A DNA stretch of 64,000 nucleotides from Mobula hypostoma. Its lineage: Eukaryota. Of this stretch, positions 7,191-57,090 are shown piece after piece (positions within the stretch are counted from its first letter, which is position 1; each line of letters starts with the position of its first letter). The stretch covers positions 131,504,001 through 131,568,000 of the forward strand of contig NC_086097.1 of assembly GCF_963921235.1 (NCBI RefSeq), read 5' to 3'. A program made the position numbers and the translations under genes. The notes under the pieces were generated by a model. The model was not told the origin of the DNA and made no database searches. It worked only from the letters and a program-made list of their open reading frames with translations.

Positions 7191-9228
7191 TTTACTAGCT
7201 TGCCTTTCAAGTTCCTTGCAGGATCTCTCAAACTGCAGCGAATGAGATATTTTAATATAAACTCTTCCTGTAACATTGGATACACAGCAGCCCATATATA
7301 CACAGCAAAGTTCCAAAGCAGCAGTATGATATTAACCTGATAAACTCCTTTTTAGTGGTTTTGATTGAGGATTAAATATTAATCAGGGCTTGGTAGAATA
7401 CCTGCTGTCCAAATGAGATAACAGATACGACTTCATAGATAATGTCATTACCATCTTTGAGAGAACAGTACAGGATTATCAGCTGAGGAAATTGTGCTTC
7501 GGGGATCCAGCACAGGGGCTTTGGCTGCACATCTCCCAAATGAAATAATTTTTTTTCAGCAGACTTCATCGTTGCTACACGGAGCGAGGAGTGGGGAGGA
7601 GAGGAGAGGACAAATTAGTAGACCTGCGCGTGGAATGTCCATTCAGTGGACTTCTGAAGTATTAGTTCAAATACAAGGTTTAAGGAGAGAAGGAGCAGGT
7701 TGGCTGTGTATCTTAGTCTAGCTACTAAGGATTGGAGAGCAGGTTCAACGTTCAAAGTAAAATTTATTATCAGAGTACATGCATGTCATCCCATACATCC
7801 CTGAGGTTCTTTTTCTGTGGGCATACTTAGCAAATCTATAGAACAGTAACTGTAAACTATAAACAAACTGTGCAAGTGCAGATATAAATAAATAGCAATA
7901 AATAACAAGCATGAAGTAACAATGTAAAAGAGTCCTTAAATGAGTGCAGCTATCCCTTTTTGTTAAAGAATCTGATGGCTGGGGGATAGTAACTGTTTTT
8001 GAACCTGGTGTGGCAAGTCCTTCTGTACCTTCTACCTGATGGCAACAATAAGAAAAGAGCGTGTCCTGGGCAGTGAATTCTTTGATGATGGATGCTACTA
8101 TTCTACAGCAACCTTTCGTGTAGATGTGCTCAATGGTTGGGAGGGTTTTAGCCATGATGTACTGGGCCAAATCCACTATCTTTTGTAGGATTTTCTGCTC
8201 AAAGGCATTGGTGTTCCCATGCCAGCCATAATACAGCCGATCAGCACACTTTCCATCACACATCTATAAAGTTTGCCAAGGTTTTTTGATGACATTCTGA
8301 ACCTCTGCAGACTCCTGAGGAAGTAGAGGTTCGATCGTGCTTTCTTTGCAATAATATTTATATGATAGGTCCAGGATATGTCCTCTGAGATGGTGACACC
8401 CAGAAATTTAAAGTTACTGACCCTCTCCACCTCTGATAATTGCTGGCTCATGGACCTTTGGTTCCCCTCTTCTGAAGTCTACAATCAATTCCTGGGTCTT
8501 ATTGACATTGAGTAGGAGGTTGTTGTCATTACACCACTCAGACAAATTTTCATTCTTCCCTCCTGTATGCCAATTCATCACCTCCTTTGATAAAGCCCAC
8601 AACAGTGGTGTCACCTACAAACTTGTATCTGGTGTTGGAGCTTTACTTAGCCACAGAATCATAGGTGTAAAGTGAGTAGAGCAGGGGACTAAGTACACAT
8701 CCCTGTGGTGCTCCTGTGCTGATGGAGATTGTGGAGGAGATATTTTTGCCAATTGACACTGATTGGGGTCTACAAGTGAGGAAATCCAGGATCCAACTGC
8801 ATAATGGGGAATTGAGGCTCATGTCTTGGAGTTTATTGAGGGGATGATGGTGTTAAATGCTGAGCTGTAATCGATGAAGAGCATCCAGATGTATGCATCG
8901 TTGCTGTCCAGATGTGTGAAGAGCCAACAAGATACCACCTGCTGTAGACCTGTTGCTTCAATAGGCGAATTGAAGTGGATCCAAATCGAGATTCAGACAG
9001 GAGCTGATTTACTTCAACACCAACCTCTCATAACACTTCATCACTGTGGATGTAGATGTCACTGGGTGATCGTCACTTAAACAAGTTACCATACTCTTCC
9101 TGGGCACCAGTATGATTGAAGCCTGATTGAAGTAGATGGGTGCCACACACAGCCGAAGCGAGAGATTGAAAATATTCGTGAATACACTAGTCAGTTGGTT
9201 GGCACAGTTCTTCAATACTCCAAGGATT

Positions 9229-10848
9229 GGCAAGGATTCCCCTCCCGCTACAGATGACCCCTTCTCTTGTCTTCAACCTTCCTCCTCCTCCTCCTGGACA
9301 CCCCGCCCGGGCCTTCTACCTGCACTTGATCTCTTCATCTCCAACTGTCCCCGAGACATCAACCGTCTCAACTTCACCACTCCTCTCTCCTGTTCTAACC
9401 TCACTCCCTCTGAACGCACTACCCTCCACTCTCTCCGCACTAGTCCCAACCTCACCATCAAACCTGCTGACAAAGGTGGTGCCGTAGTAGTCTGGCGGAT
9501 GGACCTCTACCTCACTGAGGCCAAATGGCAGCTCTCTGACACCTCCTCTTACTTACCACTGGAACAGGACCCCACCAAAGAACATCAAACCATTGTCTCC
9601 CACACCATCACTGCCCTTATCAACTCCAGAGACCTTCCATCCTCAGCTGCTAAACTTACTATTCCCACACCCCGTACCGCTCAGTTTTACCTCCTCCCAA
9701 AGATACACAAGCCTGACTGTCCTGGTAGACTCATAGTTTCTGCCTGCTCCTATCCCACTGAACTTGTATCTGCCTACCTGGATTCCATTTTGTCACCCAT
9801 AGTTCAGTCCCTCCCCACCTACATCTGGGATGCATCCCATGCCCTCCACCTCTTCAATAACTTCCAATTCCCCGGTCCCAACTGCTACATTTTTACTATG
9901 GATGTCCAATCCTTATACACCTCCATTCCCCATCAAGAAGGCCTCAAAGCCCTCCGCTACTTCCTGGATAATAAACCTCACCAGTTCCCCACCACCACTA
10001 CCCTCCTCCGGTTGGTGGAACTGGTTCTCACACTTAATAACTTCTCTTTTGGCTCTTCCCACTTTCTTCTGACTAAGGGTGTAGCTATGGGAACTCGCAT
10101 GGGCCCCAGCTATGCCTGCCTCTTCGCTGGTTATGTGGAACAGTCTGCGCTCCAGACCTATTCTGGTACTGTTCCCCAATTTTTCCTTTGGTACATTGAT
10201 GACTACATTGGTGATGCTTCGTGCACCCATGCTGAGCTCATCAAATTCATCGACTTTACTTCAAACTTCCACCCAGCCCTCAAATTCACTTGGTCTATAT
10301 CTGACACTTCTCTCCCCTTTCTTGATGTCTCGGTCTCCATCTCTGGAGACAGACTGTCCACTGACATCTTCTACAAGCCCACTGACTCTCATAACTACCT
10401 CGACTATACCTCTTCCTACCCCGCCACATGCAAAAATGCCATTCCCTATTCCCAGCTCCTCCGTCTCCGCCGCATCTGCTCCGAGGATGAGGCTTTCCGT
10501 TCCAGGACATCTCAAATGTCCTCCTTCTTTAAGGATCGTTGTTTCCCTTCTACCGTCATCAATGATGCCCTCACCCGCATCTCCTCCATTTCCCGCACTT
10601 CGACCCTTACCCCATCCTCCCGTAACCACAACAGGGACAGAGTTCCCCTTGTCCTTACCTACCACCCCACCAGCCTCCGGATCCAGCTCATTATCCTCCA
10701 CAATTTCTGCCACCTTCAACAGGACCCCACCACTAAGCACATCTTTCCCTCTCAACTCCTCTCTGCTTTCCACAGGGATTGGTCCCTCCGCGACTCCCTT
10801 ATCCACACTTCCATCCCCACTGATCTCCCACCCGGCACATTCCTGTAA
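9229..10848 (+). CDS. PLE reverse transcriptase (open frame, N-terminally truncated)
   Basis: Motifs IKPADKGGAVVV, FYLLPKIHKP, MDVQSLYTSIP, KGVAMGTRMGPSYA, YIDDY, LPFLDVSV, KPTDSHNYLDYTS; the first ~31 aa of the tracked ORF (from 9136) are antisense Rex1 sequence, not part of the element. Confidence 0.9.
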   Translation, partial: GKDSPPATDDPFSCLQPSSSSSWTPRPGLLPALDLFISNCPRDINRLNFTTPLSCSNLTPSERTTLHSLRTSPNLTIKPADKGGAVVVWRMDLYLTEAKWQLSDTSSYLPLEQDPTKEHQTIVSHTITALINSRDLPSSAAKLTIPTPRTAQFYLLPKIHKPDCPGRLIVSACSYPTELVSAYLDSILSPIVQSLPTYIWDASHALHLFNNFQFPGPNCYIFTMDVQSLYTSIPHQEGLKALRYFLDNKPHQFPTTTTLLRLVELVLTLNNFSFGSSHFLLTKGVAMGTRMGPSYACLFAGYVEQSALQTYSGTVPQFFLWYIDDYIGDASCTHAELIKFIDFTSNFHPALKFTWSISDTSLPFLDVSVSISGDRLSTDIFYKPTDSHNYLDYTSSYPATCKNAIPYSQLLRLRRICSEDEAFRSRTSQMSSFFKDRCFPSTVINDALTRISSISRTSTLTPSSRNHNRDRVPLVLTYHPTSLRIQLIILHNFCHLQQDPTTKHIFPSQLLSAFHRDWSLRDSLIHTSIPTDLPPGTFL

Positions 10849-10849
10849 G

Positions 10850-11245
10850 CGTTAAGTGCTACACCTGTCCCTACACCTCATCTCTTGCAACCATTCAGGG
10901 CCCCAAACAGTCCTTCCAGGTGAGACAACACTTCACTTGTGAGTCTGTTGGGGTCATCTATTGCATCCGATGCTCCCGGTGCGGCCTCCTCTACATCGAT
11001 GAAACCCGACGCAGATTGAGGGACCGCTTCGTTGTGCGCCTCCACTCCGTCCGCCACAACAGACAGGATCTCCCGGTAGCCACCCACTTCAACTCTGCTT
11101 TCCATTCCCATTCAGATATGTCCATACATGGCCTCTTCTACTGCCATGATGAGGCTAAACTCAAGTTGCAGGAGCAACACCTCATATACCGTCTAGGTAG
11201 TCTCCAGCCCCTTGGTATGAACATAGAATTCTCCAACTTCCGAAA
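10850..11245 (+). pseudogene. PLE GIY-YIG endonuclease domain, separated from the RT by small indels and a stop near 10840-10855
   Basis: HFTCESVGVIYCIRCSRCGLLYIDETRRRLRDRF...HFNS...EQHLIYRLGSLQPLGMNIEF; YIG is changed to YID. Confidence 0.88.
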
Positions 11246-11452
11246 TTCCCTCCCCCTCCCTTCCTCTATCCCTATTTCATTCTATCCCCTCCCCCAGCTC
11301 CCTCATGTTTCCGCCTCCTTCTTCTACCACCCATTGTTTTCAGGGCTATGACGTCAATGCTGCCCCTCTCCCACCCCTTTGTCTTTCAAATTACTGGTCT
11401 TTCAACTGACGCTACAAGCATTCTTCAAATCCGTCCCCATCTTTCATTCTTC

Positions 11453-11488
11453 AGTCCTGACGAAGGGTTCCGGCCCGAAACGTCGACT
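11453..11488 (+). ncRNA. Minimal type I hammerhead ribozyme motif in the PLE 3' terminus (predicted cleavage after C11484)
   Basis: Stem I AGTC/GACT; core CTGACGA (11457-11463); extra A; stem II GGGT-TCCG-GCCC; GAAA (11477-11480); GTC triplet; stem III reduced to the ACGT palindrome. PLEs are known to carry minimal hammerheads. Confidence 0.82.
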
Positions 11489-12269
11489 CATCATTTCTGA
11501 CTGATGCTACCCGACCTGCTGAGTTCATCCAGTGTACTGAAAGTGTTTCTTCAATACTCCCCCAGGTACTCTATCTGGACCAGATGTTTTCATTGGATTC
11601 ACTCTCTTGAAGGCAGCCCGCATGTCATCTTCAAATACTGAGACCAAAGGATCATTGGAAGACAAGGGGGTGTGTGACGATTCTTCCCTGTTCTGGTGGT
11701 CAAAGCAAGCATAGAAGGGCTGTTATGGAAGTGAAGCTCTGTTGTCGTAAGATTTAACTTTGTAGGCAGTTTTGGCATTCAAACCCTGCCACAGCCACCA
11801 AGCATCCTTCAATGCCGGTCCAGTCCACAATCTCCACTTCGCCCGAGAGATGGCTTTCTGGAGATCATACCGGCACCTCTTGTAGCATTCTTGTTCTCCA
11901 GATTAGTAATGAAAAGTAGTGTTGGTCTCTTGATGCTGAGATGCCACTCTGTGTATTGCTCAGGGGACACCTTGCAATTGTCTCTATGTATTTATGGAGA
12001 CTTCATTGTCCTGCACTCCATGTAACACAACACTGAAAACCATAGGGGAGCAGACAGTGCTGCAGGAAGAGCAGTGAAAAGACTCCGAGCCTGACGGCCA
12101 GGAAGAACATCCCGAGAGCAGCAGGAGCAGGGCAAGCCAGAGGGAGAGGGTGGTTCCCAGGCAGATATCAACTGTCTCATCTCTGAAATAATCAGGGAGG
12201 GAGACATTCGAGTCTTGAGATTTTGGGAAGTCCTGAATGCAGAGTTGTTTCTCCTAAGGAAACTACTAT

Positions 12270-20189: not shown

Positions 20190-21030
20190 TAGAATCAGAA
20201 TCAGATTTCTTATCATCAGGCCAGGCAGCATCTATGGAAAAGAGTAAACAGTTGGCATTTTGGACTGAGCCCCTTCATCAAGTCCTGAAGAAGGCTTTTG
20301 GCCCAAATCATCGACAGTTTACTCCTTTCCATGGATACTGCCTGGCCTGCTGAGTTCTTCCAGCATTTTGTGAGTGTAGCTTGGATTTCCAGCATCTGGA
20401 GATTTTCTCGTCTTAGAATTATTATCATTGTCTTTTTGACGTGAAATATGTTTTTTGGCGACCACAGTACAGTCTAAAGATATAAAATACTATAAATTAC
20501 ATAGTATATAGGATCTAAAAAGGAATAATGAGGTTCTGTTCATCATCCTGTGCATTGGAGGCTCCATAACACACTGTGATGCAAACAGTCAGAATACTCT
20601 TTAGTATACATCTGTAGAAATTTGCAAGTCTTTTGCAGCATATCATATCTCTTCTAACTCCTATTGAAGAGTTGCTGGTGTGTCTTCTTCATGATTGCGT
20701 CAATGTCTTAGTCTTAAGATAGATCCTCTGAGATGTTGAACCCAGGATCTCTCATCTCCTGTACACCTCCTCATTACCATGTGAGATTTTACCAACAACT
20801 GTGGTGTCATTTGCAAATTTATGCTAGATGGTGTTTGAGCTGTATTTAGCCACACAGTTGTGAGTATATAAAGAGTGGAACAGTGGGCTAAGCGTGAATC
20901 CTTGAGATGCATCTGTGTTGATTGTCATGAGGAGGAGATATTAACACTGATCCATACTGCCTGTTTTCTCCTGATGAGGAAGTTAAGGATCTAGTTGCAG
21001 TGGTACAACAGGCCCAGGTTTAGAAGTTTG
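20190..21030 (-). mobile_element. Deleted Rex1-type LINE (minus), with a PLE palindrome inserted in its tail
   Basis: (aatcag)n tail; gtggtgtcatttgcaaatttatg is the reverse complement of KFA(N/D)DTT; same layout as 42690-43680. Confidence 0.7.
20216..20412. repeat. Head-to-head palindromic PLE-terminus element centred on the hammerhead
   Basis: caggccaggcagcatctatggaaaagagtaaacagttg...ccccttcatca|agtcctgaagaagg...gacagtttactcctttccatggatactgcctggcctg; flanks agatttcttatcat / agaattattatcat. Confidence 0.82.
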
Positions 21031-21404: not shown

Positions 21405-21552
21405 CACACAAGCAACACACACAAAATGCTGGAGGAATTCAGCAGGCCAGACTGCATCTATGGAAAAGAGTACAGTCGACGTTTCTGGCCAAGATCCTCC
21501 AGCATTTTGTGTGCCTTGCTCGGATTTCCAGCATCTGCTGGTTTTCTCTTAT
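21405..21552. repeat. Inverted, internally deleted pair of PLE termini
   Basis: caagcaacacacacaaaatgctggagg...gtcgacgtttc on the left; cctccagcattttgtgtg...gatttccagcatctgc on the right. Confidence 0.75.
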
Positions 21553-33507: not shown

Positions 33508-34143
33508 TATGGTGGTGGCATCTGTCAGTCTCGCGAGACCATGGATCTGCGCCTGGAAAGTCTTGCTTCAGTCTGTGTTAGAGCGACGTCTGTTGTGGCT
33601 GTAGAGGCCCATACGGGAGTGACAGTCTCGGCTGGAACGACTGCACTCCAGTGTTGTCTTGGCACTGTTTTTCCGACGAGTGCGCTTTTCTTCAGCAGCA
33701 AGCCTCAGCTTCTCCTCTCCTCTTTTTAGATCTCTGCGTAGTTTCAGCCTCCAGTGAGAGCAATCGCTTGCGATGTCCTCCCACCTCTCGACGTTCATTT
33801 TCAGTGACTTCATGTCTCTCTTGCAAACGTCTTTGAAACGAAGATGGGGCCGCCCCTGTGCTCTCTTGCCGGAGGCCAGTTCCCCATACAGCAGGTCTTT
33901 CGGGATCCTCCCGTCTGACATGCGGTGTACGTGGCCCAGCCAGCGGAGATGGCGTTGTTGGAGCAGGGTGAAGAGGCTGGGTTTTTGGGCGCAGACCAGG
34001 ACCTCATTGTTGGTGACTCGGTCAGTCCACATGATGTCCAGGATGCGTCACAGGCTGCGAAGGTGGAAGGCGTTGAGACGCTGCTCTTGTCTGTAGTAGA
34101 GGCTCCAGGTCTCACTGCTGTAAAGCATACATTTAGGCAAAAT
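33508..34143 (-). mobile_element. RTE-clade (BovB-like) LINE 3' fragment
   Basis: WTDRVTNNEVL...LRWLGHVHRMSDGRIPKDLLYGELASGKRAQGRPHLRFKD in ORF 33568-34032. Confidence 0.92.
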
Positions 34144-35911: not shown

Positions 35912-37211
35912 GTTTACAATGTGAAGACTAACAAGAGACATGCATTATGGTTTACACCTGAAGTGAGCGGCAAATTAATTAAAATGGAATTGGATACTGA
36001 CACAGCTGTTTCAGTTGTGACACAAAATTAGTTTGAAAGGCATTTCAAAGATATTGAACTGAAGCCCACAAATATTCAGCAATAACCTTTACTGGAGAAA
36101 AGATAACTTTTGTGGGAATGGCACCAACAACAGAAGCACAAACGCAGAGATGGGGTCTGTTTCTCGGAGGTCACCATTACAAGATTGAATTCAAGAGGAT
36201 GACTAATGATGGATTGTCCTGTTTAGGCTCGGAAAAGGAAATACTTGAAAAATTTACATCAGAGGACACTGCTCTTGACTTAGTCTCGCGACTGCAAATT
36301 GAAAGTCTCTCCATTACGGTAGAGATGTTCTAGAGGGAAATTAGAAAAACACCCCACACTGTCTCCAATCTACATGGCCACCCAAAATGGCTGGAATGCA
36401 CAGCAGAAATCCCAGTCTCTACATTTTACCAAGGCCGGGATGAATTTGCCCTTGACAGGGGTTACCTTATGTGGGAATTGAGAGCTGTATCGTCCATGCT
36501 GAGAGCTAAAACGTTGGAGGAGCTACATACTGGTCATCTAGGTGTGGTCAAAATGAACGTGTTGGCTCAAAGCTTTGTATGGTGGCCTGTGATAGATCAG
36601 CAGATCGAGCAACTTGCCGTGCACAGCCTGGGATGCCAGCACATCCAGAAGAAAGGTGTCCAGGGCTGTCAGAACCACTTCCTGCAGTCCCAGAGGCAAC
36701 TCTTACAACCGCCAGAGGAGGAGGCCCCAGAATCTGAGATTGTTTCACAGCCACAAGTCTCTCCTGCCATGCAGAGTGACTCCCCCTTATCAAGAAAGCT
36801 CTTATGCCACAAGAGTAAGAAATCCTCCACAGCAATGAAATCTTTAGGCCTGAGTGGGACAATTTAAAATTTACTATCATGTGGATGTCTGTGTAGCTGT
36901 TGTATTACATAGTATACTGTGTATATGTTGAGATATATTCTATATTGAATTGGAGTTTATAACTAAGCTGGGAGGAGTGTTGTGTATTTAATATTTCAGT
37001 AATATTTGAGTAATATTGTAAATATATTGTTTGATTAAGCATTCTTGTTCGTTTAATTCATTACAGTTTTATATAAAAGTATGTGAATGATGTATGTCAT
37101 GCCATATATGCCTGTCTTGCTAAAAGTAAAAATGAAACTAAGACATGTATTCAGGACTCTTCATGCTTTGCTTCTGATTAGTTTTATGTTTTGAAGTTAC
37201 AAAACATAACA
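35912..37211 (+). mobile_element. Internally deleted Ty3/Gypsy LTR retrotransposon (protease, integrase zinc-binding region, polypurine tract, 3' LTR)
   Basis: aaaatggaattggatactgacacagctgtttcagtt (KMELDTDTAVSV, aspartic protease); LEELHTGHLGVVKMNVLAQSFVWWPVIDQQIEQL...GCQ; purine tract gggaggag directly before TGTTGTGT. Confidence 0.85.
36978..37211 (+). repeat. Gypsy 3' LTR (about 234 bp)
   Basis: Starts TGTTGTGT right after the polypurine tract and ends ACATAACA (7/8 inverted termini, TG...CA). Confidence 0.75.
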
Positions 37212-47735: not shown

Positions 47736-47890
47736 GGACAAGAGAAAATCTACAGATGCTGGAAATCCAAGCAACACACACAAAATGCTGGAGCAACTCA
47801 GCAGGCAAGGCAGCGTCTATGGAAATGTCGACTGTACTCTTTTCCATAGATGCTATTGTTCCTGCTGAGCTCCTCCTGTATTTTATGCAG
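47736..47890. repeat. Head-to-head palindromic PLE-terminus element joined next to the GTCGAC cleavage-site palindrome
   Basis: ctcagcaggcaaggcagcgtctatggaaat|gtcgactgtactcttttccatagatgct...cctgctgag. Confidence 0.78.
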
Positions 47891-49317: not shown

Positions 49318-52140
49318 CTACATGTACTTAACTAAAAGTCTCTTAAAAGACCCTATCATATCCACCTCCACCACCATTGCTGGCAGCCCATTCCATGCAC
49401 TCACCACTCTCTGAGTAAAAAACTTACCCCTGACATCTCCTCTGCACCTACTCCCCAGGCACGTTAAACCTGTGTCCTCTTGTGGCAACCATTTCAGCCC
49501 TGGGAAAAAGCCTCTGACTATCCACACGATCAATGCCTCTCATCATCTTATACACCTCTATCAGGTCACCTCTCATCCTTTGTTGCTCCAAGGAGAAAAG
49601 GCTGAGTTCACTCAATCTATTCTCATTAGGCATGCTCCCCAATCCAGGCAACGTCCTTGTAAATCTCCTCTGCGCCCTTTCTATGATTTCCACATCCTTC
49701 CTGTAGTGAGGCGACCAGAACTGAGCACAGTACTCCAAGTGGGGTCTGACCAGAGTCCTAGATAGCTGCAACATTACCTCTCGGCTCCTAAATTCAGTTC
49801 CATGATTGATGAAGGCCAATACACCATACGCCTTCTTAACCACAGTGTCAATATGTGCAGCTGCTTTGAGTATTCTATGGACTCGGACTCCAAGATCCCT
49901 CTGATCCTCCACACTGCCAAGAGTCTGACTATTAACACTACATTCTGCCATCATATTTGACCTACCAAAATGAACCAATTCACACTTATTTGGGTTGAAC
50001 TCCATCTGCCACTTCTCAGTCCAGTTTTGCATCCTACCAATGTCCCACTGTAACTTCTGACATCCCTCCACACTATCCACAGCACCTCCAAACTTTGTGT
50101 CATCAGCAAACTTACCAACCCATCTCTCCACTTCCTCATCCAGGTCATTTATAAAAATCATGAAGAGTAAGGGTCCCAGAACAGATCCTTGAGACACACT
50201 ACTGGTCACCGGCCTCCATGCAGAATATGACCTGTCCACAACTACTCTTTACCTTCTGTGGGCAAGCCAGTTCTGGATCCACAAAGCAATGTCCCCTTCG
50301 ATCCCAAGCTTCCTTACTTTCTCAATAAGCCTTGCGTGGGGTACCTTATCAAATGCCTTGCTGAAATCCATATACACTACATCTACTGCTCTTCCTTCAT
50401 CAAGGTGTTTAGTCACATCCTCAAAAAATTCAATCAGGCTCGTAAGACATGACCTGCCTTTGACAAAGCAATGCTGACTACTCCTAATCATATTATACCT
50501 CTCTAAATATTCATAAATCCTGCCTCTCAGGATCTTCTCCAACAACTTACCAACCACTGAGGTAAGACTCACTGGTCTGTAATTTCCTGGGCTATCTCTA
50601 CTCCCTTTCTTGAATAAAGGAACAATATCCGCAACCCTTCAATCCTCCGGAACCTCTCCCGTCCCCATTGATGATGCAAAGATCATCGCCAGAGGCTCAG
50701 CAATCTCCTTCCTCGCCTCCCACAGTAGCCTGGGGTACACCTCATCCAGCCCTGTCGACCTACCCAACTTGATGCTTTACAAAAGCTCCAGCACATCCTC
50801 CTTCTTAATAGCTACATGCTTAAGCTTTTCAGTCTGCTGCAAGTCATCACTACAATCACCAAGATCCTTTTCCATAGTGAATACTGAAGTAAAGTATTCA
50901 TTAAATACCTCTGCTATTTGCTCCAGTTCCATACATACTTTCCCACTGTCACACTTCATAGGTCCTATTCTTTCATGTCTTATCCTCTTGCTGTTCACAT
51001 ACTTGTAGAATGCCCTGGGGTTTTCCTTAATCCTGCCCGCCAAGGCCTTCTCATGGCCCCTTCTGGCTCTCTTAATTTCCTTCTTAAACTCATTCCTATT
51101 AGCCTTATAATCTTCTAGATCTCCAACATTACCTAGCTCTCTGAACCTTTTGCAAGCTTTTCTTTTCTTCTTGACTAGATCTATTACAACCTTTGTACAC
51201 CATGGTTCCTGTACCCTACCATAACTTCCCTGTCTCATTGGATCGTACCTATGCAGAACTCCACAAAAATACCTCCTGAATATTTGCCACATTTCTTCCC
51301 CACTTTTCCCTGAGAACATCTGTTTCCAATTTAAGCCTCCGATTTCCTGCCTGATAGCCTCATAACTCCCCTTACTCCAATTAAATGCTTTTCTAACTTG
51401 TCTGTTCCTATCTCTCTCCAATGTTATTGTAAAGGAGATAGGATTATGATCACTATCTCCAAAATGTTCTCCCACTGAGAGATCTGACACCTGACCGGGT
51501 TCATTTCCCAATACCAAATCAAGTACAGCCTCTCCTCTTGTCAGATTATCTTCATATTGTGTCAAGAAACCTTCCTGAACACACCTAACAAACTCTACCC
51601 CATCTAAACCCCTTGCTCTAGGGAGATGCCGATCAATATTTGGGAAATTAACATCTCCCATCACGTCAACTCTGTTACTATTACACCTTTCCAGGATCTG
51701 TTTCCCTCTTGGCTCTCGATATCCCTGTTACTATTGGGCGGCCTATAAAAAACACCCAATAAAGTTATTGACCCCTTCCTGTTCCTAACCTCCACCCACA
51801 GAGACTCCGTAGACAATCCCTCCATGGCGTCCAGCTTTTCTGCAGCTATGACACTATCTCTGATCAACCGTGCCACGCCCCCCACCTCTTTTGCCTCCCT
51901 CACTGTCCATTCTGAAACATCTAAAACCCGGCACTTGAAGTAACAATTCCTGTCCCTGAGCCATCCAAGTCTCTGTGATGGTCACCACGTCGTATCTCCA
52001 AGTGCTGATCCACGCTCTAAGCTCATCCGCTTTGTTCACAACACTCCTTGCGTTAAAATAGACGCAACTCAAACCTTCGGTCTGAGTGCATCCCTTCTCT
52101 ATCACCTGCCCATCCTCCCTCTCGCACTGTCTACAAGCTT
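49318..52140 (-). pseudogene. CR1 ORF2 (endonuclease and reverse transcriptase), broken into several frames
   Basis: Tracked ORFs 51854-52204, 51661-51903, 50777-51664, 50249-50572, 49448-50239 and 49318-49533 are consecutive pieces of one APE-RT polyprotein. Confidence 0.93.
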
Positions 52141-55530: not shown

Positions 55531-55836
55531 CTAGTCTTTTTCCTCCTCTGCCTTCTCCCATCCCCACCACCCACAAAGACTATTCCTATTTTCTCTGCTG
55601 GTCCAGATACTTTTTGCCTCAGCCTCCCCCTGTGAGAGTGAGTTCCTCATTCTTACCATTCCCTGTTGATCTTTAATTCTCTGCTGGATCGCTTGGTCAT
55701 TCTATTGTGTTGACAGTCTCTTGTTAGTACCTTACCTCAGAAGTGGAAATATTCTCTCTGCCTACACCCTGCTTCCATCATTTTTAAGAACTCCATGAGT
55801 TTCTCAAGAGAATTCAGACCTACTTTATTCAAATCT

Positions 55837-56060
55837 CAAACACGAGAAATTCTGCAGATGCTGGAAATTCAAGCAACACACATCAAAGTAGCTGGTGAAT
55901 GCAACAGGCCAGGCAGCATCTCTAGGAAGAGGTACAGTCGACGATTCAGGCCGAGACCCTTCGTCAGGACTGGGGTCTCGGCCTGAAACGTCGACTGTAC
56001 CTCTTCCTAGAGATGCTGCCTGGCCTGCTGCGTTCACCAGCAACTTTGATATGTGTTGCC
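55837..56060. repeat. Young head-to-head palindromic PLE-terminus element (87-bp arms, 13-bp spacer on the hammerhead core)
   Basis: Arms 55873-55959 and 55973-56059 differ at 5 positions; flanks tttattcaa-atct / tttattcaacatct. Confidence 0.92.
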
Positions 56061-56139
56061 TGTTTATTCAACATCTACACATTTCTGGAATCATTCTTGT
56101 GCATTTTCATGCTCTTTCTTCAGTACCTCTTTACCTTAG

Positions 56140-57090
56140 GTCACTGTTACAGAAAAGATGTAGTTAAATTGAAAAAAGTGCAGAATGGTTTATGAGGATG
56201 TTGTCAGAATGAGAGGGCTGGAAATAGGGAGAGGCTGGCCAGGCTAGGAGTTCCTTGGAATGTAGGTGAATGGAGTGGGGTGGGTGGGCGACCTTATAGA
56301 ATTTTTTTTAAGTTATGAGAGTGATAGATAAGGTGAATGCTAACAGACTCTTTCCCAGGATAGGAGAATCCAGGACAAGGGTGCATAGGTTTAGGGTAAA
56401 AGGGGAAAGATTTAAAAGCTTCTTGAGGGGCAACTTTTCAATGCAGATGGAAGTGAGTGTATGGAATGAGCTGTCTGAGGAAGTATTTGAGGCATATGTC
56501 CTTGGATAGCACTTCAACAGGTACATGGAGAGGTGGAGTTTAGAGGAATATGGGCCAAAGCAGGTAATTGGGATTAGCTCTAGGCAAAGGTTCAAAGGTT
56601 AATTTTTTATCAAAGTATACAACTCTGAAATTCTTCAGTTCTCCGGGTAGCTATGAAACCAAGAAAAAAGAAGAAAGGTTGTATGATCATCAACCCCCAA
56701 ATTCCTCCTCTTGCACAAAAACTGAGCAAAACGGATCAGATACAATGACCCTCAAATCCTTCCTACCACACAAAAAGATAATGAACAAAACAGATCAGGC
56801 GTATCAACTCCCAAATCCCTCCTCCCAGACAAGAAACAAGCAAAACAGATCAGGCACAGCGACCCCCAAGTCCCTTTTCCCACACAAAAAAAACACAAAC
56901 AGAACTGATCAGGCACATTGACCCCCGCCGCCCCCCCCCCCAAATCCTCCTCCCCGCACAAAAAAAAAGAAGATTGGGCGAAGAAAAAACAGAATTTCAA
57001 AACTATAAGACTGAAAAAGAGAGTCTGTGGTTGACATAGACTGGATGGGCTGAGTGGCCAGTGTCCATGGTGTATTATTTATGGCTCTAT
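56140..57090 (+). mobile_element. CR1 3' fragment, interrupted at about 56585-57030 by a minus-strand LINE tail containing a minisatellite
   Basis: MRVIDKVNANRLFPRIGESRTRVHRFRVKGERFK in ORF 56315-56509; CR1 tail resumes at ggttgacatagactggatgggctga. Confidence 0.75.
56684..56975. repeat. Degenerate minisatellite, about 5 units of 55-62 bp
   Basis: Recurring (aaaca)gatcag...acccccaaatcc..ctccc.cacaaaaa unit. Confidence 0.8.

Follow-up and report, generated by a model that had tools for sequence, protein, structure and literature searches.

Units of EN+ PLEs, such as Pen2a_Av of Adineta vaga, are described in the available text of two reports as carrying an inverted, 5′-truncated pLTR together with a one-sided tail of 30-40 bp (PMC3846280, PMC8557442). 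In the accessible part of a third report, this tail is the interval between two RT start sites, and the protein of an anole PLE was seen in vitro to cut and extend both strands, extension beginning at two start sites, one at either boundary of the tail (PMC11167929). How the inverted repeats and the one-sided tail originate is called unresolved where the accessible passages of these sources take up the question (PMC8557442, PMC11167929). The inverted-copy-plus-tail layout of the locus considered here is already published for EN+ PLEs.

Twin priming in L1 offers another point of reference. There, the second target strand primes a second cDNA, the inverted junction carries microhomology, and the product has one TSD; the second primer anneals upstream on the RNA, inverting a different segment.

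Here we consider a palindromic stub derived from a PLE, which lies in a window of 64,000 nucleotides (the whole stretch of DNA that was analyzed; contig C1, 131504001-131568000), together with its relatives throughout the 3.48 Gb genome, whose repeats resemble those of a cartilaginous fish. As a single locus the stub is ordinary, being one of more than 10,000 such stubs, each of which was likely built anew at its landing site; as a class, the stubs are useful as in vivo evidence on PLE integration. Our literature search, outside of which most subscription papers lay, found neither a paper that treats mini-palindromes of PLEs as a class nor one that describes twin priming in these elements.

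Anatomy of the stub in the window

Arm alignment within the window places the stub at 55837-56059 (223 bp) and shows a head-to-head palindrome of PLE origin. Its inverted arms, 55873-55959 and 55973-56059, are 87 nt each, are separated by a 13-nt spacer and mismatch at five pairs of positions (55944/55988, 55904/56028, 55900/56032, 55890/56042 and 55881/56051); the initial annotation had likewise given 87-bp copies with 5 mismatches and a 13-bp spacer. The same annotation gave the whole as a 224-bp palindrome. The palindrome is real, but the actual unit is one base shorter and asymmetric: the left arm is longer by 36 bases (55837-55872), which are the PLE tail, while the right arm is tail-less. 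When positions are numbered from the hammerhead cleavage site, 0 being the first base after GUC, the left arm covers -32 to +102 on the minus strand and the right arm covers -20 to +66, with one filler base at the join. The features of the locus, and the coding PLE found elsewhere in the window, are as follows.

55824-55836, plus strand: left TSD copy, 13 nt, which may extend to 55819 (flank alignment)
55837-55872, minus strand: PLE tail, 36 nt, element positions +67 to +102, on the left arm only (arm alignment and parent)
55873-55959, minus strand: left palindrome arm, positions -20 to +66, with 4 private substitutions (alignment)
55935-55971, minus strand: the only complete minimal type I hammerhead motif in the stub, GAAA changed to GAAT, predicted to be inactive
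55960-55971, minus strand: templated spacer, positions -32 to -21, helix I 5′ strand and CUGANGA box, ending at the -32 stop hot spot
55972, plus strand: filler base joining the arms, absent from the parent
55973-56059, plus strand: right arm, positions -20 to +66, tail-less, with only the 3′ half of the hammerhead and 1 private substitution
56060-56062, plus strand: 3 bases, possibly part of a longer, decayed TSD
56063-56076, plus strand: right TSD copy, 14 nt (flank alignment)
9222-11546, plus strand: coding PLE, 5′-truncated, belonging to a different though related subfamily, with a TSD of 14 bp

The spacer (55960-55972) is the reverse complement of CAGTCCTGACGAA and had been read throughout as the reverse complement of stem I and the CUGANGA box. 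This is right for 12 of its bases; only these are templated, because the parent subfamily reads TTAGTCC and not CAGTCC (its base at -33 is T instead of C); the remaining base, 55972, is a 1-nt filler. The flanks, TTTATTCAAATCT (55824-55836) and TTTATTCAACATCT (56063-56076), align with one indel and so bear out the proposed TSD of 13-14 bp as one of 13/14 bp, with a match that extends to 18-19 nt if looser matching is allowed. No empty site for the stub was found among the other loci examined in the same genome. The stub had been called non-coding, and none of the ORFs of at least 150 aa in the window's ORF list overlaps it.

The stub's only complete hammerhead lies on the minus strand, where GAAA is changed to GAAT at 55944. 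A minimal hammerhead can be read by eye in both the parent and the left arm, in the minimal type I layout given in the available text of PMC4209133; an Rfam scan of the stub returned no match to a hammerhead model. By folding computation the stub forms a hairpin of -197.7 kcal/mol (z of -24.8 relative to shuffled sequences), and the core mutation at 55944, together with burial inside this long hairpin, is predicted to leave the ribozyme inactive. A match to the mir-789 precursor (Rfam RF00905), at 52.7 bits as against a gathering score of 100, was set aside as a generic hairpin match.

Judged from its sequence, the stub derives from the terminal repeat of an element with RT plus a GIY-YIG domain at its C terminus, that is, of an EN+ PLE. 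In L060, a near-intact parent copy, the terminus continues beyond +102 into a 1,043-codon open frame with matches to RVT_1 (E 0.005) and, at the C terminus, GIY-YIG (E 0.001), both Pfam matches lying under the curated cut-offs; the L060 ORF has 72% aa identity to that of the coding PLE in the window. Since the parent terminus runs past +102 into the ORF, both +66 and +102 fall within the RNA and precede the ORF, and they are best read as putative internal start sites of the parent. The element itself (L060:5137-8860; contig C1, about 16.88 Mb) is a near-full-length young PLE that was apparently inserted within an older palindromic stub, and part of its RT region appears to be shifted out of frame and then back. 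The coding PLE of the window has no inverted arm and a frameshift between its RT and endonuclease regions; its TSD is of 14 bp (9208-9221 / 11547-11560), as had been stated before.

Three further PLE palindromic stubs, of older subfamilies, were seen in the window at 20214-20414, 21409-21548 and 47738-47860; all three are single-tailed, each with a different junction. A degenerate tandem array with units of about 55-59 nt occupies 56689-56970, and stop-to-stop frames with retroelement fragments occur at 36334-36867, 49448-51727 and 33568-34047. We take the fragment at 36334-36867 to resemble a Gypsy-type integrase region, and those at 49448-51727 and 33568-34047 to be CR1-like and RTE-like LINE fragments.

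Junctions, tails and arm ends across the genome

Genome-wide pattern searches found 4,227 palindromes with an identical 10+10-nt core, 7,128 with 12+12 anchors and a gap of up to 150, and 10,926 with 16+16 outer anchors, while reversed-pattern control searches of the genome gave 0 matches. Single PLE termini number 47,562 when counted as exact 17-mers. From the palindromes we assembled 161 unique ones, a non-random sample taken mostly from the start of contig C1 and in part picked by junction pattern. Junctions could be mapped in 155 of the 161, and 130 were left once loci retrieved for their junction had been removed. These 130 loci have 98 junction types. Fillers are present at 46 of the 130 junctions, and microhomology of at least 2 nt is found at 56 of the 84 filler-free ones, as compared with 17% for random blunt joins.

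Exactly one tail is carried by 158 of the 161 palindromes; the three exceptions comprise a duplicated end, a compound insertion and an artifact of mapping. The center lies at +64 to +68 for short ends and at +101/+102 for long ends (+102 being where the reference stops), and both classes are seen on unpaired copies as well. Inverted pairs that lie 0.8-2.7 kb apart are single-tailed in all four cases. As these pairs and the palindromes of other subfamilies obey the one-tail rule, the stubs are the short end of a size continuum that reaches kilobase inverted pairs.

The tabulation of TSD lengths proposed in the initial annotation found a TSD at 130 of the 161 palindromes as against 1 in the shifted control, with a mode of 14 bp and a length of 13-15 bp in 98 of the 130. 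For 42 of the 161, another repeat copy holds the two flanks in collinear order, with the flanks overlapping there in 39 of the 42, which matches the empty-site prediction. Random post-insertion rearrangement had been tied in advance to unique junctions, no clustering and no TSDs; with junctions that recur and cluster, and with TSDs, the stubs are instead insertion products.

The two arms of a stub tend to agree. At the four most variable subfamily sites, arm discordance is 4-7%, compared with 48-60% expected if the arms were independent and a background of 2.9%. When five subfamily sites were compared in 156 elements, the arms differed at none of them in 121 elements, at one in 32, at two in 2 and at four in 1. 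The last of these, L295 (around 1515), which differs at 4 of the 5 sites, is a candidate two-template insertion, or else a product of later conversion. Shared variants thus suggest that, as a rule with occasional exceptions, a single RNA or a single source locus gave rise to both arms.

Arm ends are concentrated where helix I has its 5′ edge, some 32 nt upstream of the cleavage site. Exact-match counts by reach are 43,466 at -25, 33,469 at -32, 30,670 at -33 and 26,526 at -39, which corresponds to a loss per base of 3.7% from -25 to -32, 8.4% at -32 and 2.4% from -33 to -39; the loss in the far zone (-60 to -320) is about 0.08% per base in a 53-copy sample, a rate obtained by a different method from the near-zone rates, whose exact-match counts include point mutations. 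Among 90 sampled non-T loci, only 4 were long copies with a point change. The 53 copies were chosen regardless of arrangement, and 21 of them end between -13 and -59, 6 between -60 and -320, and 26 further out. In 24 of 88 pairs, the longer arm ends at -31/-32. It had been claimed that the palindrome is folded on the ribozyme core: junctions do cluster near the hammerhead, but the center lies about 20-32 nt upstream of the cleavage site, in the helix I 5′ strand. Few junctions lie at the ribozyme cleavage site itself: of 88 shorter arms, 8 end at -2 to +1. The helix I peak is in line with the independence of the in vitro PLE reaction from ribozyme cleavage that is reported in the available text of PMC11167929.

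In 90 loci ending at -32, we looked for traces of a capped or spliced template. No excess of G was found before the stop, the preceding base being A in 16, G in 10 and C in 9 of 35 unpaired copies and C in 19, A in 17 and G in 15 of the palindromes, a division in which L155, L237 and L250 are labeled unpaired but are palindromic or compound. An excess of 'TG' that was apparent in the first 30 loci came down to 8 of the 35 unpaired copies in the larger set. For splicing upstream of helix I, the 90 loci contained no shared upstream-exon filler and no spliced copy. In the parent, the region upstream of helix I (about -51 to -31) contains a branch-point-like motif, a pyrimidine tract and tandem AG acceptors; this splice-like sequence is located at L124:1450-1475 and likewise at L182:1475-1505, with TACTAAC in some variants. 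At the 5′ edge of helix I, the sequence resembles both an initiator motif and a splice acceptor. An intron end of Penelope in D. virilis maps to the helix I 5′ end, the same position as the acceptor-like sequence here, according to the accessible part of PMC4209133.

Possible origins of the stubs

The stubs are insertions made in one event. They have a TSD, a common source for both arms, a long end opposite a short one, and junctions that vary, and their arms stop in a zone at helix I. Each is a very short EN+ PLE insertion, and we consider it probable that it was formed by twin priming from both ends of a staggered cut. The endonuclease would make this cut, with a stagger of about 14 bp, and each DNA 3′ end would prime reverse transcription on the element RNA, from the far site (+102) in one case, which gives the tail, and from the near site (about +66) in the other. 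Shortly past the hammerhead, at -32 and -20 in the window stub, both cDNAs would stop and would then be end-joined, with one filler base in the window stub, after which gap filling or repair would create the TSD. The occurrence of two priming events, the order of the steps and the cause of the stop near helix I are what we infer from these products. The initial annotation held that the element was generated or mobilized by a PLE; its terminus, TSD and single tail support its having been made by PLE machinery, but not a separate mobilization, and the stub itself is predicted to be unable to move again.

As to why the arms end near helix I, most likely the template RNA begins there and the cDNAs are run-off products that failed to jump. 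This is our best guess, and pausing of the RT is the rival explanation of the stop.

The agreement between arms fits one RNA copied twice, and it equally fits fold-back copying, in which a tail-primed cDNA snaps back on microhomology near helix I to serve as its own template, after which the hairpin is cut or joined about 36 nt short. As arm agreement is compatible with both models, it is the tail side that separates them, unless spacers flip after insertion; recombination between arms could cause such flips and randomize the tail side, and the fold-back account would invoke them to randomize the loop-bearing arm. The enrichment of microhomology at junctions would suit fold-back, as do the shared subfamily variants, and the idea has precedents in the available text of two reports, one proposing self-priming for the inverted junctions of rotifer PLEs (PMC3846280) and the other ascribing the tail to endonuclease resolution of an intermediate (PMC8557442). 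In the window stub the tail is on the loop-bearing arm, an arrangement that fold-back could also give for a single copy. However, of 146 elements, 80 carry the tail on the nearer arm and 66 on the further-reaching one, and self-copying of a tail-less strand cannot yield the former. The nearer-arm position is seen even where the arms have remained identical over positions 0-55, in 4 of 12 such copies of the commonest junction. Short ends on unpaired copies, and the arms of L295 from two subfamilies, also speak against fold-back, which we therefore hold to be unlikely.

We see still less reason to believe that one or a few master palindromes were transcribed and re-inserted whole by PLE proteins, as a MITE-like or retrozyme-like family. 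This possibility, which in its MITE-like, non-autonomous form was favored by the initial annotation, might draw on the recurrence of some junctions, at 355 loci for the commonest one counted and at 4 for that of the window stub (with the same filler base), and on the PLE-type TSDs carried by all recurrent-junction copies. Yet the suggested check, whether identical junctions recur at many loci, went against it, as the 4 loci with the exact junction of the window stub amount to about 0.1% of the 4,227 same-core palindromes. These four copies have different subfamily variants, and the tail is on the spacer-bearing arm in two of them and on the other arm in two. The commonest junction has 3-nt microhomology, occurs on several subfamily backgrounds and has its tail on either arm (13 vs 14 of 28 copies). 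With 98 types in 130 loci, there is no uniform junction or length; the terminal repeats are not symmetric, one end being 36 nt longer; and the size series extends to kilobase inverted pairs. Moreover, the ORF sequence that follows downstream of the start sites is missing from a stub; from the available text of PMC11167929, the anole protein needs this sequence in vitro, and by analogy a stub RNA might need it as well. For the bulk of the stubs, a master-copied family is largely refuted.

Virtually no credence is due to rearrangement after insertion, whether by inversion or by two chance head-to-head insertions, which might be invoked given the great density of PLE termini (47,562 exact 17-mers) and the existence of nested insertions (L060), but which is refuted by the one TSD that encloses the entire unit in 130 of 161 palindromes and by the one-tail statistics, and which is also at odds with arms that share variants and with anchor gaps of which 44% (3,159 of the 7,128 12+12-anchor palindromes, at 50-75) fall within 17% of the range.

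It would be tempting to go beyond twin priming and to read the stubs as a genome-wide fossil record, in which the two target ends are primed on a single RNA by a dimer of the protein, the start sites being strictly divided so that every insertion has one tail and one short end, and the cDNAs run off at the RNA 5′ end at the helix I edge, like a retroviral strong-stop. On this wider reading our own opinion is evenly divided. If true, it would account at once for the inverted pLTR and for the one-sided tail, and it would map the start of the element RNA from DNA alone.

Implications and comparison with known systems

The one-tail rule (158 of 161) and the free choice of tail side yield predictions that can be tested in the existing anole in vitro system. 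The stubs also matter for annotation, as they could be misfiled as MITEs or, as the sub-threshold Rfam match illustrates, as miRNA hairpins. Furthermore, the near-perfect hairpins, which number more than 10,000 and measure about 200 bp, are predicted to be dsRNA wherever they are transcribed. Palindromic repeats are reported as heavy targets of A-to-I editing in frog, and Penelope in lizard, in the accessible part of PMC5625713.

With EN+ PLE units, as far as their published descriptions are available, the stub shares the head-to-head inverted copy, the tail at one end, the TSD around the unit and the hammerhead in the terminal repeat, and the 36 nt between +66 and +102 match the described PLE tail (PMC3846280, PMC8557442). 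Unlike those units, the window stub has a direct copy as truncated as the inverted one, with no ORF left, and its class, within one subfamily group, numbers more than 10,000 loci, whose junctions are concentrated near helix I.

The likeness to PAc (Poseidon of Anolis carolinensis) in vitro extends to the cutting and extension of both strands, to two internal RT start sites that bound the tail and to a reaction in which ribozyme cleavage is not needed (PMC11167929). Palindromic products and the assignment of one start site to each DNA end are not described in the accessible text of that account; the one-tail rule implies, in vivo, such a division of start sites between DNA ends.

Minimal hammerheads of metazoan PLEs have the same minimal type I layout, and in Schistosoma they occur as opposite-strand pairs 100-700 bp apart, inverted pairs that the available text notes without junction mapping or a mechanism (PMC4209133). 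Like the non-LTR retrozymes of animals, as portrayed in the accessible portions of PMC7229834 and bioRxiv 10.64898/2026.07.22.740005, the stub is small, non-coding, hammerhead-bearing and PLE-related. Retrozymes are, however, head-to-tail tandem repeats yielding circular RNAs in those sources, whereas the stub is a single head-to-head unit whose ribozyme is mutated and sequestered. Retrozyme identity was rejected for the stub, in which head-to-tail tandem monomer repeats are absent.

The comparison with L1 twin priming turns on where the two cDNAs begin. In contrast to the L1 case, both arms of a PLE stub start within 36 nt of each other, so that the same segment is duplicated.
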